Assembly (NCBI GenBank): GCA_021613535.1
Contig: CP075492.1
Span: 14,183,769-14,247,768 of the forward strand
Source of the DNA: Adineta vaga
Lineage: Eukaryota; Animalia; Rotifera
DNA length: 64,000 nucleotides
Direction: 5' to 3'
Part shown: positions 7,100 through 43,396 of the stretch, in pieces
Layout of the letters: each line of letters begins with the position of its first letter
Position numbering within the stretch: position 1 is the stretch's first letter
Notes under the pieces: model-generated
Databases searched by the model: none
Told to the model about the DNA's origin: nothing
What the model saw: only the letters and a program-made list of their open reading frames with translations
Program-made: the position numbers and the translations under genes

Positions 7100-7942
7100 T
7101 TAAGATGTTTCTCTAATAAATCGAGGAATTAATTCAGCAGCTACGTCATTACCAGGTTCTGTTAATGATAGGTGATGAACACCACGTTCCACAATCAAGA
7201 ATTTCCATAATTTAGGTAATTTCAATGTCCATACTTTTGCTTCTTCAATTGGAAAGATGCGATCTTCTTCTCCATGAAGAGCTAATATTGGCATAGTAAG
7301 TTTTTCTAGTTCATCATCAATCGCATCACGATCTAGAAGACATGTCATTGCTGGATCATAACCTTCAGCACCAGCATATCGTTCAATCCACATTTCTTTG
7401 ATCTTTTCAAATACTTTCTCATTGAGACGTACAGGTCCACCAAAAGATGCTGCTCTTGTCAAAATTGCTTCATCACTTGGAATCTTCGTTTCACACCATT
7501 TATCCCGAGCTTTTAGCATCATGATTTTGATTTGTTCTGCAGTTGAATAGACTGAAGTTCCCAATAATATCAGTCCTTTCACTCGATGAGGTTCAAGTAG
7601 AGCCATTCGAAGTGCAATGAAACCACCTTGAGTCGTTCCCATGGCATAAAATTGATCGATACCAAGTTTAGTAAGAAGTTCTAACGAATCTGAAGCAGTG
7701 TCCCAAAAAGTAAATTTCTCATTACGACCTTTAGTTTGTCCATGACCATGTGCATCAATGGAAATGAGATTGTAGTTAGAATATCGAATGTCTTTCATTT
7801 GTTGATCATAGAATCGTGAATCCATGAGAAAGGCATGATGCATAACAATGGTTGTTAATGGTTTGTCAATTGGATGAGAAAGACGATAAGCAATGGTAAC
7901 ACTATCATCCAATGTCATATAAAGTAGTTCTTTATGAAACAT
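7100..7942 (-). CDS. Alpha/beta-hydrolase fold protein (AB hydrolase-1 type), single exon; the nucleophile elbow reads G-T-T-Q-G-G
   Basis: 280-aa ORF with an 'HHAFLMDS' oxyanion region, elbow motif 'AMGTTQGGF', and C-terminal 'GEEDRIFP...GVHHLS' (acid/His). Confidence 0.7.
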   Translation of the reverse strand: MFHKELLYMTLDDSVTIAYRLSHPIDKPLTTIVMHHAFLMDSRFYDQQMKDIRYSNYNLISIDAHGHGQTKGRNEKFTFWDTASDSLELLTKLGIDQFYAMGTTQGGFIALRMALLEPHRVKGLILLGTSVYSTAEQIKIMMLKARDKWCETKIPSDEAILTRAASFGGPVRLNEKVFEKIKEMWIERYAGAEGYDPAMTCLLDRDAIDDELEKLTMPILALHGEEDRIFPIEEAKVWTLKLPKLWKFLIVERGVHHLSLTEPGNDVAAELIPRFIRETS

Positions 7943-8263
7943 GATATATTAGATCGAAATCGAATACAATTGATGATTATTCTTTATACTTTTCGAATAT
8001 AGAAATAAGTGGCAACAGATGTGCTTTTTATCATACTATGAGAATAGAAGAATGAGAGAAAAAAACTTCACAGAACTAAGTGTAATAGGAAAATATATCA
8101 TAAGCAAACGATCAAGCACTTGTGCTCATTTGAAAGTTAGGTGAAAATACGTACGATAATTCCATATAGCCATACTCTTATTTGTTCGCAATATTTTTTG
8201 TTTCAATTTACAGAAGTGATTCATATGAAAGATAAAAAAAGGTGAGAAGAAAAGAAAAAAAAG

Positions 8264-8335
8264 AGGGGACACCCGGAATCGAACCGGGAATCGGTCGATC
8301 TGCAGTCGAATGCTCTACCATTAAGCCATGTCCCC
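8264..8335 (-). tRNA. tRNA-Cys (anticodon GCA)
   Basis: Cloverleaf folded by hand from the reverse complement (GGGGACATGGCTTAATGGTAGAGCATTCGACTGCAGATCGA...). 7-bp acceptor stem, anticodon loop CTGCAGA, T-arm CCCGG/TTCGATT/CCGGG. A T-rich tract follows on the coding strand as a Pol III terminator. Confidence 0.85.
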
Positions 8336-13400: not shown

Positions 13401-13685
13401 TTTTTTTGTTCGTATTACTTCAGATATAAACAGCCGAAGAAAACCTCCTTATCTTATGTATAAAACATAATTTCCGAGAATTGATATACTTTTTAACACC
13501 ATATTTTTGTAAGTTTACGGTGAAAGCTATGCGATGCGCAACCGATATCTTAATAGAAAAATGAGGGTGACGAAATAAGTCTTCATTGCATCATTCGGAA
13601 TGTCGCATTTTGTGAAATTACACAGCTATTGCATGGATCGAAAAGAATGAAATTCAGAGAACCTATGAGTTTTGTTGATTAAAAA

Positions 13686-13757
13686 AAGGGACACCCGGAC
13701 TTGAACCGGGAACCTCTCGATTTGCAGTCGATTGCCGTACCATTGAGCCATGTCCCC
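13686..13757 (-). tRNA. tRNA-Cys (anticodon GCA), second copy
   Basis: Reverse complement GGGGACATGGCTCAATGGTACGGCAATCGACTGCAAATCGAGAGGTTCCCGGTTCAAGTCCGGGTGTCCCT. Anticodon loop CTGCAAA. Followed by T7 (plus-strand A7 at 13681-13687). Confidence 0.85.
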
Positions 13758-13821
13758 TGGTATAATTAATCGGTCTTTAATGAGCGGCAAATGTAGCTTT
13801 CATTTTACAAATTTGTAATAT

Positions 13822-37202: not shown

Positions 37203-38157
37203 ATGAATTCATCAACACCAGTACATCAAATACCAAACATTATCATTGATTGTTCAATTATCACAGGCTCTTCAATTACTATTTGCGTTTCACTTGCAAT
37301 ATTTCAATTGATTTGCTATGATTTAATCAAACAGAAAACTTCTTTAGATCGAGTTGCACTTCTTCTAACAGCAAATGTTTATTTATCATTATTCTTCTTC
37401 TCCGCATTAGTTCTTGAACAGTTTATACGTGCATATCTAGGACATCGCTATTTGATGTATCATTAAGTGATGGAATCTATTGTCAATTTCGTTCTTATCT
37501 TCCATGGGTGTCCATTTGTGGAATCATGTACTCGAATACTTTGCAAGGAATCTATCGTTTATGTCGAATTGTTTTTCATACTAAACAAATGCTTCAATCA
37601 TTTCACTTCTACATGAAAATGATCGTTATTCAATGGATTCTATGTTTCACAATTCTCATTCCTTCATTTTTTCTTGATGGTTTTAAATATTCAGTGAATA
37701 ATTATTATTGTGAAAATGATTATAGAAATATTCGAAGTACAGTTTTTAATGGTACTCTCTCTTCTACCATTCCGATAACTCTAGCGAGTATGTGTTAGTT
37801 TATACATGGAGAAAAATGCATCGAAGAGATAATCATTTATTACAAACAATGACACGAATTCAAGAGATGAACGCACGACGTGATTTAGTTGTACTGTTTC
37901 GAATTTGTATTATTCATGGATTCTTATCCATATTCTTTACACCTTCTTCAGTATTACTTTTCATTTATATTGGCACTGGGTATGAACCTTGGTGGTCACC
38001 ACAATTTCAATGGTTATTTTTGTGTCTGTCAACTACCTGTATTAGTGTTACACTATTATTTATATCACCTCATGTTCAAAATTTATTGAAAAAAAGATTT
38101 CATCGACGTCGTCATCAAACATCTGTACATATTCATATGAGAGTTACTTGTCCGTAG
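37203..38157 (+). CDS. 7TM receptor-like gene spread over three frames (37203-37466, 37508-37798, 37792-38157); introns or frameshifts unresolved
   Basis: Hydrophobic TM segments throughout, 'AYLGHRYLMYH' near the TM3 end, and a basic C-terminus. The exact exon junctions could not be fixed by hand. Confidence 0.35.
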
Positions 38158-38497
38158 AGAATACTGAACTGATTATTTGTAATAATATATTCTCTCATTC
38201 ACATTTTCAAGAGTATCAATTTTGTTGTGAAATTAGAAAATGATGATAGACGAACAGTATGTTTATCACAGTGAGAAAAAAAAGTACTAAAATACCTAGT
38301 GATTACACAACAAACCTATTGGCTGATTTTTATATACTATGAATTTGATGAATCGAGTAGATCGATAAGTTTTCTTTCTCTCATCTTTTGACTCGTACAC
38401 TCGAAAGTGTTTACATACTGATGTCATATAGATGAGAAAAACAAAAATAATTAGATGATAGTATTCATAATTATAGAAGCGTAAGTGATAGTTTGGA

Positions 38498-40646
38498 TTA
38501 CCATTGATAAAATTGCTTGTTATTCTTCGTATCATCACTATTACAACCTGATAACCATTTCGAAGGTTTCGTAATATTTACAAATCCAAGTTTGGCTGCT
38601 GGACTATTCCATTTCACTGTGAAAAAATTACATTGATTTGTATCACCTGAAAACAATGGATCATCTATAATACTTCCATTGTCTTGACCTGTCTTTTGCC
38701 AATCAATAAATGATAGCTGTTGTGGACCGAATAGTAATTTAGTACCATACGGATTGAAATAGATATTATTATTCAATACTGCTCTAACGTTTGGATCAGA
38801 TTTATAAGCTGAATGATTTGTTCCTTGAAATGTATCATAAACAATATTACGTGTGTATGTCCATGATGTATGATTTTCTGCTAATTGAATACGAACATCA
38901 CCATCGGGAAAAGGGTCACCTGGTTGTGATGGTTGAATCAGTGATGCACGAGCAAAAACATTATTTACAATCGTATTATTTGCACCATAATGTTGAAATA
39001 AAGAACTCCAACCTGTATTGTATACAACATTATTTGAAACAAGTATATTTGATGCACCATCATCAAGATAAATTCCCCACATATATGTTGCATAACTATA
39101 CACGTTTTTAATAACATTCCCATGGATAACTGTACCTGATTGAATACCGATCGTATAAATACCACCTTGATCACAAAGTATATGTTGACCAATTGTATAA
39201 ATATAATTTTCTAAAATGAAAATTTTTGTTGTTAATGATTCCGTATAACCATTTTGTGAACCAACAGATATACCATTATATCGATGATGATGAATACTAT
39301 TATCTGCAATAATGATATCATATGCACGAAAAACTAATACTCCTACACCACTGGGAAAAACATTTCCTCCATAACTAATTTCATTGGAAATGATCTTATT
39401 TGAATTTGCTAATATTGATGCTGGTGTTAGCCAATCACCAATCCAAACACCACCAGCACCTGTATCATTGACTAATGAATTCATAAAAATAATATTCGAT
39501 GTCCCTTCTCTTAATCGCAATCCATATGATCCTGTATGACTAATTTCAACATTAGATATAGTGATTGATGTTGCATTGGCAATAAAAAATGCAACCGATG
39601 TAAGAAATGAGGCTGATGCTGAATTGGCTTGTTCAGTACGACCGATATTCCATGCACCATGTTGTATAGCAATATTATCAATAATAATATCTCGAATGGG
39701 ATCTGTTGTACAGTTGCTAGCTAAGGAAACAACAATTTCTTGAACTGATGTAATGATTTGTGCTTGTGTTGGATCATAGGTACCATCTGTCATCAAGTAG
39801 ATCGTTTTCGTTTCATTGACAAAACAGAATGAATTTGGAATAAGTGCTTCACAAAGATTTTCAATATGAAATCGTCGTTGAGCTTGAGTTGGAAATTCGC
39901 CAATAGGATATTGAGAAGGATTAGTAAAGAAAATAGTATTATTCGACGGTATGAGTCGATCAATATAATGATGGGATTCTGTCCAACTATGATAAATAAC
40001 TACCATTGCATCTGTTAATGATGTATAATTGAATTGTCCAGGTGCATATTGAAAACCATATCGTGATTGAATGGAATCATTTAAAGGTGCAACATATTGC
40101 AAATATTCGGAAAAATTAGTTGGAATACGTGTACGAACAATTCGTTGATTATTTACGAATAATTGATTAACGAAGGATATTGATGAAGCAATTGCACTAT
40201 AAATATTGCCGCTAACATGTATCCAACCAGTCACAGGTACTCCACCACTAATCACTGCCGTCTTTGAACGTTGATAGGAACTTTTATGCCGCGATCGATC
40301 CATCAAACAAGGTAGTCTCTGCTTCATTCATTGTTGTTAAACGTATATGACTATGCGCTTGTGTGATGTGCGTAGTGTTAACAAAATGATAGGTTGGATA
40401 TAAATGAATGGTTATTCTGATTGATGATATCATATTATTACGATTATACCGATGTTCAATATGTTGAAGTGCTTGGTGTAATGATGAGTAAGGAAATGCA
40501 AGTGATCCATCACTATCTTTATTAAAATTTAGAAATGGAACAACGTACAAATCGTTCGATAAAGTCGATGAAAGAGCTGACGTTTGATATAATTCACTAA
40601 TAATTAAAATTAATGTCACTAAAATTTGATCTTTCGTAATTTTCAT
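38498..40646 (-). CDS. Secreted right-handed parallel beta-helix (PbH1 repeat, pectin-lyase fold) protein, bacterial-like; about 2 exons (40300..40646 signal peptide/N-terminus; 38498..~40280)
   Basis: 609-aa ORF with repeated beta-helix rungs ('NVVYNTGWSSLFQHYGANNTIVNNVF', 'GNVIKNVYSY', 'ISNVEISHTGSYGLRL'). The upstream ORF 40284-40646 begins with signal peptide 'MKITKDQILVTLILIISELYQTSA'. The junction near 40284-40330 is probably the acceptor TTCAAAG|ACGGCAGTG (giving 'TAVISGG'), but no canonical GT donor sits in phase. Confidence 0.6.
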
Positions 40647-42047: not shown

Positions 42048-43396
42048 TTATAATGATCGTAACCATGTTTGTAAAATCATTAGAGCAATTCTTGTTGGTA
42101 TTGGTAATGATTCTTCTAATAATACTAATGAAATTCTTTCTAAAATATTCGGTATACATTGTGGTAATGTTTTCAATGCTTGAATCAATCCATCGGCAGT
42201 GAATAGATCTTTGCCAACAATAGAAGCGATCGTAATCCAATCGAATACTGGCAATTCACAAACTCCACCTTTTACGTAGCATCTGGGATGAGAATTGAAT
42301 GCAATTTTTTGTAAAATAGAACAATTCTTTTCACAGTTTTCCAAGGGAGATACGAGAGATTTTTGCAAACAATTCATCGTCTTCCCTATCCATCGTTGTC
42401 CTCGTGGACTAAATGTTTTTAAATTATGAGTAAATTTCATACAATATTTCATTCCATAACCTAATGCATATCCATTTGCACCACATGAAACTTTCTCTTC
42501 CATACAATCAGAATAAAATGCACAACTATGCATAGGTGGATTTATACATGACTGACGACACATGGGATCAGATGGACATTTTGTACAATCTTTGTTACAT
42601 TCATCACATGTTGGTTGGTTGACAATCATAGTTTCTGTTCTACTACTATCGGGTAAGAGAATAAGATCAATCGGAGATATTGAAGGTATCATCCCAACTA
42701 CATCTATTTGATGCTGCTTCGTACGAACAAAAATAGAGATTGGCAACGTTGGTACATTTTTGAAAATAACTATGCCATGATTATTCGTTGTACCAATGTG
42801 TCCTACATGAGGATTCTCTGTTAAATTCAGATTGACTATAACATTACTAGCAACAGTTCCATTGTTGAATAATACACGAATTGGTATCATGATCAATCCA
42901 AAATATAAATGAAATGACGTAAATATTGGTACATTATATATATCCAAAGCATATACACTAAGAACTGTAGATGTATCGAATTTTTCTCTTACAATTATAG
43001 AATCTTTTGTATGAGATGTATTCATTATTGGCTGTCCATTAGCAAATATTGCGTAATTATTGATATTGAATATTGGAAATGACGCCATTATTCTTACATC
43101 TGTATTTCCATTGTTAAATGAAAATTCATCGACATTGATTAGATTAACTTCTACCTTTGACAGTTTCTGGTTGGAAAGTTTTGAGGCAAATCTTTTTGCA
43201 GCGCGAGTAACTATAAAATAAAAATAAAATCATTATGACAATAAATGATATATTGTATAAATCATACATACATTCTGATGAATCAGCTAAATAGATTGAA
43301 ATGAGACTGATAGTAAGAACTATTTTAAAAAACTTTCTAAAAACAAATAAGATATTTACGAATATTATATTCGAAATTTTACTTTTGTTGTTCCAT
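42048..43396 (-). CDS. Secreted Cys-rich protein of unknown function; complement(join(42048..43210,43272..43336,43383..43396)), about 413 aa, with a 14-nt first exon
   Basis: ATGGAACAACAAAA|GTAAAAT (14-nt exon), then a 46-nt intron. The 65-nt exon 2 encodes signal peptide 'KFFKIVLTISLISIYLADSSE'. A 61-nt intron (GTATGT...TTTTATAG) follows, then the long exon. All phases check. C-terminal 'CDECNKDCTKCPSDPMCRQSC'. Confidence 0.45.

Follow-up and report, generated by a model that had tools for sequence, protein, structure and literature searches.

A one-base frameshift in an intronless beta-helix gene of Adineta vaga, a putative GH141-like member of an expanded rotifer family with bacterial relatives

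The subject of this analysis is a gene for a right-handed beta-helix protein on a 20.35-Mb chromosome of Adineta vaga, a bdelloid rotifer. It occupies positions 38498–40646, on the minus strand, of a 64,000-nt stretch of DNA (assembly GCA_021613535.1, contig CP075492.1, positions 14,183,769 to 14,247,768), which we call the window; all coordinates given below are those of the window. The gene is represented by two open reading frames (ORFs) in different frames. The junction between the two ORFs is one extra base in an otherwise intronless gene; it is not a boundary between two exons. We estimate the probability at roughly 0.6 that the frameshift is a genuine and very recent mutation, perhaps heterozygous, which inactivated one member of a redundant family. 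Judged by sequence and predicted fold, the family is better labelled as GH141-like (glycoside hydrolase family 141) than as pectate lyase, and its distribution fits an old transfer from bacteria into the bdelloid ancestor, with subsequent adaptation to the secretory pathway and expansion.

The two minus-strand ORFs, 38498–40327 (609 aa) and 40284–40646 (120 aa), overlap by 44 nt. The 609-aa ORF is 100% identical to the GenBank protein I4U23_015417 [Adineta vaga], a ‘hypothetical protein’. A reading of this DNA made earlier from its letters and ORFs (the sequence-only reading) had reported both ORFs and their different frames, and had taken the upstream one for a signal peptide and an N-terminal cap; we confirmed these points. 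By itself the 120-aa ORF has no match in Pfam. In a tblastn comparison with P0002, the orthologue from Adineta ricciae, the 120-aa ORF aligns in frame −3 with residues 22–110 (70% identity, E = 1e-29), while the remainder of the protein aligns in frame −1. Its N-terminus aligns with the N-termini of intact family members, and a hydrophobic core at residues 7–16 (Kyte-Doolittle values up to 3.7, a heuristic check) fits a signal peptide, whose cleavage site probably follows residue 24. Both ORFs encode parts of one protein, the 120-aa ORF supplying its predicted signal peptide and its N-terminal cap. The features of the gene are as follows.

40575–40646, minus strand: start codon at 40646–40644, where the first ATG follows an in-frame stop, with the predicted signal peptide (residues 1–24), MKITKDQILVTLILIISELYQTSA
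40291–40574, minus strand: N-terminal cap and first beta-helix rungs, LYVVP...DGSLAFPYSSLHQALQHI...RITIHLYPTYHF...HIRLTTMNEAETTLFDGSIA, in the upstream frame, by homology to A. ricciae P0002
40277–40302, minus strand: frameshift zone, net +1 nt relative to all intact relatives, from pairwise and three-way DNA alignments
40286–40284, minus strand: premature stop codon TAA arising from the shifted frame
38498–40288, minus strand: downstream-frame part of the coding sequence, HKSSYQRSKTAVISGGVPVTGW ... NNKQFYQW, with the putative catalytic beta-helix body and the C-terminal region; stop codon TAA at 38500–38498
40325–40327, minus strand: internal ATG, the start of GenBank model I4U23_015417; its first 13 codons, MKQRLPCLMDRSR, do not lie in the frame of the ancestral protein
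39170–39172, minus strand: Asp codon in HILCDQGGIY, aligning with the first essential Asp of the GH141 enzyme BT_1002
39062–39064, minus strand: Asp codon in GIYLDDGAS, aligning with the second essential Asp of BT_1002

The A. ricciae orthologue (locus L001, 6001–8136) is a single uninterrupted ORF of 2136 nt in two assemblies; the body part encoded by the A. vaga gene is 84% identical to P0002. The order of genes is conserved between the window and both A. ricciae assemblies, with a stanniocalcin-like gene upstream (window 42048–43088) and an Mpv17/PMP22-like gene (about 33176–33845) and an aldo-keto reductase gene downstream. A protein search with the 609-aa ORF produced 214 homologues at E<=1e-3, the best 120 of them at 63–83% identity; besides A. 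vaga's own protein, nothing was found above 83% identity. All hits with named organisms were from Adineta or Rotaria. The typical length of the homologues, ~710 aa, is the sum of both window ORFs. Several homologues of ~610 aa (P0003 and others) could have pointed to a truncation or an intron shared with the A. vaga gene. This was ruled out, as the ORF of L083, a relative from a metagenome, is continuous: it stays open all the way from the signal peptide, and the ‘610-aa’ gene call arose because the start codon was chosen at the conserved Met of the RLTTM motif.

The coding DNA of A. vaga, A. ricciae and L083 aligns with indels of 12, 3, 3 and 3 nt and with exactly one gap of 1 nt. This gap is the only indel in 2.1 kb that is not a multiple of three. 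It reflects one surplus base in the A. vaga gene, which the alignment locates to G 40290 (GCG[G]CAT) and whose position is ambiguous within about 40277–40302; if the insertion lies 3′ of 40284, the TAA at 40286–40284 would be a second lesion. Removal of one base at 40290 produces an ORF of 715 aa with no further stop; an open frame of 715 codons in DNA of 31% GC is far beyond chance. The sequence-only reading had postulated an N-terminal exon and had left a choice between a non-canonical splice and a frameshift. The exon has to be given up, since the orthologue and the close relative are single ORFs and the only non-triplet indel is the one base at about 40290; of the two options the frameshift stands and the splice does not.

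The splice deserves closer inspection, given that a two-exon gene, in which a short or non-canonical intron joins the cap ORF to the beta-helix ORF, could be constructed on paper. In-phase GT-AG pairs are present, such as GTTTGA...AG with an intron of 28 nt (40308–40281) or 61 nt (40308–40248), and an intron of 61 nt is a plausible length for bdelloids. We enumerated all in-phase GT/GC-AG joins of 20–400 nt that keep the frame open; there are 75, and 75 of the 75 delete conserved residues. The shortest and least damaging joins are 28 nt long, very short for a spliceosomal intron, and the sole GT-AG join among them, 40308–40281, uses the weak donor GTTTGA and drops nine residues. The 61-nt join drops 20 residues, among them two of the ISGG motif, its invariant Ser (S128 in P0002) and the Ile before that Ser. 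The earlier claim that in-phase joins need the weak donor or cost conserved residues is thus borne out by the enumeration. Furthermore, there is no intron at this place in the orthologue and relatives, and their DNA can be aligned as coding sequence, base for base, across the putative intron. We regard a two-exon gene as very unlikely.

The history of the lesion can be judged from substitutions. In comparison with A. ricciae, the ratio of non-synonymous to synonymous substitution rates (dN/dS) is 0.19 before the frameshift and 0.098 after it, with dS of about 1. With three outgroups, the lineage-specific changes before the junction number 4–7 in A. vaga versus 5 in A. ricciae; after the junction the numbers are 28–32 versus 33–35. 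The equal counts of changes and the low dN/dS show the A. vaga copy to have been a constrained coding gene for essentially all its history. Absence of rate acceleration in A. vaga implies that the frameshift is either very recent, possibly present in one haplotype of a collapsed assembly, or an error of the consensus.

The second option is a serious alternative, though a clearly less probable one. The extra base would then be an assembly or consensus error, or a collapsed heterozygous indel, and the true gene would be an intact single-exon ORF of 715 aa coding for a functional secreted GH141-like enzyme. A single lesion in 2.1 kb, strong purifying selection on both halves, no excess of A. vaga-specific changes and the intact state of both putative catalytic Asp residues are all in its favour. 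On the other hand, the context of the extra base (GATCGATCGCGGCAT) contains none of the long homopolymers that tend to cause indel errors, and large redundant gene families often carry fresh pseudogenes. We infer that the lesion is biological rather than an artefact of assembly. Some observations weigh against this reading: the unaccelerated A. vaga rate is equally expected of an intact gene, and the extra base adjoins a GG dinucleotide in a rotifer-specific loop that is poorly modelled (predicted local distance difference test, pLDDT, of 59 for orthologue residues 111–120). This helix/loop is specific to rotifer proteins, bacterial relatives being ~15 residues shorter there. In a gapped pattern scan of metagenome contigs neither junction allele was found, and a search of the contig collection gave no record of the 120-aa upstream ORF.

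Around the frameshift (12 residues, window 40253–40300, about residues 116–131 of the repaired protein) six changes are seen in A. vaga only, namely L>S, R>H, E>K, H>S, H>Y and L>S, counted where four relatives agree or nearly agree; elsewhere in the protein such A. vaga-specific positions make up only about 5%. These residue changes raised the idea of a complex replacement mutation at the junction, which was set aside: a 1-nt gap suffices and the DNA is not exceptionally diverged. The 24-nt windows of DNA with the least similarity do not include the junction; they lie in the part encoding the signal peptide and cap (40534–40588).

If the frameshift is real, the fate of the downstream frame has to be considered. 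The annotated 609-aa product, starting from the internal ATG at 40327, could in principle be a functional protein, a cytosolic beta-helix enzyme lacking the cap. Such a product matches the GenBank gene model; a Met is conserved near this point (RLTTM) in relatives, and prokaryotic gene callers sometimes start there. Still, the ATG at 40327 lies in the shifted frame, with the first 13 residues out of frame, and the product would lack the signal peptide as well as strands 27–100 and helix 51–65, which cap the helix in the structure model. Moreover, purifying selection continues to act on the upstream part, which agrees with its being part of the protein. We therefore give little credence to a functional 609-aa enzyme; having neither signal peptide nor cap, the annotated product is probably non-functional.

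Alternatively, the frameshift might be real and yet bypassed by +1 ribosomal frameshifting at GCA-UAA-A (40289–40283), so that a protein of the full ancestral length is made. Slipping by +1 at the stop codon would restore the exact 16-residue spacing of the orthologues; however, any single-base skip in the overlap gives an equal length, so the spacing is unspecific. Overlapping frames at this place are found in no relative (the A. ricciae orthologue and L083 were compared), and no stimulatory element is known, although none was searched for. We consider such recoding hardly credible. A slightly broader proposal, that the insertion is real and fixed and that the full-length secreted enzyme is still made via +1 frameshifting at 40289–40283 or via a very short cryptic intron, is extremely improbable too. 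If true, recoding or cryptic splicing would explain the full constraint of both halves, and the former would be an example of a horizontally acquired animal gene that is rescued by translational recoding. Unless it is bypassed, the frameshift is of little general interest.

The claim of a beta-helix protein of bacterial type was upheld by Pfam, by the predicted fold and by the bacterial relatives described below. The 609-aa ORF matches the Pfam Beta_helix family PF13229 in three stretches (E = 5.7e-16, 59 bits versus a cut-off of 25.9). A scan of NCBIfam gave only a sub-threshold generic beta-helix repeat. The AlphaFold2 model of the intact A. ricciae orthologue (pLDDT 87.5, predicted template modelling score 0.90) consists of rungs of short strands, and the part encoded by the upstream ORF contributes strands 27–100 and helix 51–65. 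A Foldseek comparison of the model with the PDB identified beta-helix enzymes in all top matches. The best one is BT_1002 (5mqp), with E = 5e-25, template modelling (TM) scores of 0.62/0.73 and about 613 aligned columns; the second is the GH120 xylosidase XylC (E = 1e-12, TM 0.41), and capsule depolymerases, tailspikes and epimerases follow far behind.

Sequence comparisons point to the same enzyme family. BT_1002 is matched by a single sequence at E = 1.2e-7 and by a profile of 21 rotifer-type sequences at E = 3.6e-16; the latter also matches the PDB entry 9rx2 at E = 4e-14. With the nearest bacterial-type relatives added to the profile, the matches are full-length, at 1.9e-120 for 9rx2 and 1.7e-84 for 5mqp. 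The suggestion of a pectate-lyase type was not sustained: no Pectate_lyase family is among the Pfam matches at E<=1, and the specific relatives are the GH141 enzyme BT_1002 and the uncharacterised 9rx2. Pectin lyase A (1idj) scored only E = 0.042, and a pectate or pectin lyase was rejected.

Activity of BT_1002 requires two residues, D523 and D564 (PMC12786026, PMC5593877). In the HMMER alignment the family-invariant Asp residues are aligned with an Asp pair of 5mqp that are 41 residues apart, as are D523 and D564. Given this spacing and an offset of five residues in the numbering of the 5mqp chain, the aligned residues are likely to be D523 and D564. The corresponding rotifer residues, in HILCDQGG and IYLDDGAS (D487 and D523 in P0002 numbering), are invariant in two alignments (A2 and A3) and intact in the window. 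Two points count against the enzyme assignment: the numbering offset that equates the aligned residues with D523/D564 is itself derived from spacing, and the proposed membership in GH141 is argued from likeness of sequence and predicted fold rather than from CAZy's own models. Since BT_1002 and another GH141 enzyme, Xyn141E, are only 20.7% identical, the rotifer clade could fall inside GH141 or be its sister group.

In an exhaustive search at E<=1e-3 the family profile detected 7531 cluster representatives, with scores of about 1100 bits for the rotifer type and a drop to <=360 bits for everything else. Relatives at 27–33% identity are encoded at 590 candidate loci of bacterial and archaeal genomes; the best 80 of the 590 belong mostly to Armatimonadota, Planctomycetota, Verrucomicrobiota, Hydrogenedentota and Bacteroidota. 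The best-scoring named relative outside rotifers is P0132, a 709-aa protein from the EukProt transcriptome of the amoebozoan Phalansterium solitarium (358.6 bits, 30% identity); its presence there might reflect another acquisition by a eukaryote or contamination of the transcriptome by bacteria. That this transcriptome gives the best named non-rotifer hit is a weak point of the proposed transfer and of any choice of donor lineage.

The beta-helix gene has a GC content of 33% (17% at third codon positions), similar to that of neighbouring genes. The host-like composition and the conserved synteny imply that such a transfer would be old. A foreign origin of this gene in an animal genome, as proposed earlier, agrees with the data: it has relatives at 27–33% identity in bacteria, and it is located on a chromosome among host genes. 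The accompanying statement that the fold is unusual in animals holds in general but not for bdelloid rotifers, where it is to be expected; here the family has hundreds of members. Bdelloids carry many horizontally acquired carbohydrate-active enzymes. Literature searches gave no paper on GH141 together with rotifer and none on bdelloid together with beta-helix; the GH141 label for the rotifer family may therefore be a new annotation.

One member of the family is of an unusual form. P0122, from a 78.6-kb ENA contig outside the window, is a predicted protein of 1751 aa in which two stretches match the family profile; the best one, residues 171–869, covers nearly the whole profile with 980 bits. 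Such a protein may result from a true fusion, or from a tandem duplication that was annotated as a single gene.

Several observations concern the neighbourhood of the gene. The upstream neighbour at 42048–43088 (minus strand) is a stanniocalcin-like ORF of 346 aa (Pfam E = 1.9e-8); its A. ricciae counterpart (L001, 340–3112) is modelled as a 765-aa MACPF + Stanniocalcin protein in one assembly and two genes in the other. The spacing between the beta-helix gene and the Mpv17/PMP22-like gene is ~4.6 kb longer in A. vaga (window 33900–38400) than in A. ricciae, where it is ~220 bp. The extra A. vaga segment contains an ankyrin-repeat ORF at 34115–35083 (plus strand) and, at 37203–38157 (plus strand), three successive hydrophobic ORFs in different frames. 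The latter have no Pfam match and are probably exons of one intron-containing gene.

Rfam and tRNA scans found nothing near the beta-helix gene. Elsewhere in the window there are two tRNA-Cys (GCA) genes, at 8263–8335 and 13685–13758, both on the minus strand and 5.4 kb apart. An uninterrupted alpha/beta-hydrolase ORF of 280 aa is located at 7100–7942 (minus strand; Abhydrolase_1, E = 7e-22); being intronless, it could be another candidate for a foreign gene.

These results suggest the following scenario. The sequence 38498–40646 (minus strand) would be one intronless gene of a bdelloid-specific, much-expanded family of secreted right-handed beta-helix proteins, which the common ancestor of Adineta and Rotaria would have acquired long ago from bacteria. 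The intact protein of ~715 aa would consist of a signal peptide, an N-terminal cap and a GH141-homologous beta-helix body. By analogy with BT_1002, the Asp residues of HILCDQGG and IYLDDGAS may act as the catalytic pair, the cap and the beta-helix presenting a cleft where the two Asp would hydrolyse a glycosidic bond. The secreted enzyme would hydrolyse polysaccharide outside the cell or in the gut lumen, and it would probably serve the animal to digest complex glycans of its microbial, algal or detrital food; secretion, glycosidase activity and substrate are all predictions made from sequence. In this assembly, the extra base near 40290 would end the signal-peptide and cap part at the TAA 40286–40284, and the body could start solely at the internal ATG at 40327 and would have neither signal peptide nor cap. 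The frameshifted A. vaga copy is probably a just-disabled member of the family.

For annotation, gene model I4U23_015417 can be corrected from 609 aa, starting at an out-of-frame internal ATG, to an ancestral form of ~715 aa with a signal peptide. The family, which databases call ‘right handed beta helix domain-containing protein’, receives a testable label, that of a GH141-like glycoside hydrolase with two candidate catalytic Asp residues. If intact paralogues are active, they would add to the evidence that bdelloids digest complex microbial, algal or plant glycans with enzymes of bacterial origin. Acquired carbohydrate-active enzymes of bdelloids are well known, and the GH141 label is to be seen as a refinement of annotation.

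The closest known counterpart of the A. vaga gene is A. ricciae P0002, which is 83% identical, syntenic and of the same length and architecture; it is intact, whereas the A. vaga copy is frameshifted. Among proteins of known structure, BT_1002 of Bacteroides thetaiotaomicron (PDB 5mqp) is an alpha-L-fucosidase and the founding member of CAZy GH141. It shares with the rotifer proteins the motifs ISGG-x-ITGW, YxGIS-GW-W, D-x-GG-IYTLG and Y-x-DEGSS, which cover both essential Asp residues, at a structure-based identity of ~19%. Unlike BT_1002, the rotifer proteins have a eukaryotic signal peptide and the extra helix/loop where the frameshift falls. They also have conserved cysteines with no counterpart at the aligned positions in bacterial relatives (alignment A3), and 9–14 N-x-S/T sites versus mostly 0–7 in those relatives.

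PDB entry 9rx2, a ‘Parallel beta-helix repeat protein’ of 717 aa, is matched by the combined rotifer and bacterial profile including the N-terminal cap (YVS-x-G-x-D-x-WSG...DGPFATI) and the C-terminal motif DP-x-F-x-D...DF...SPA...G; with the rotifer-only profile the match is weak and confined mainly to the C-terminal half. A literature search for 9RX2 found no paper or functional description. The GH141 endoxylanase Xyn141E (XynE) of Clostridium thermocellum keeps both catalytic Asp residues, 37 residues apart; in the rotifer family the spacing is 36. Xyn141E, with which the rotifer protein is compared here by description, is a cellulosomal, multi-module protein with CBM6 and dockerin modules, which the rotifer protein does not have. 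Finally, the gene resembles the carbohydrate-active enzymes that bdelloids have acquired: it is intronless and host-like in composition, it is located among animal genes, its nearest relatives outside rotifers are probably bacterial, and it belongs to an expanded multigene family.

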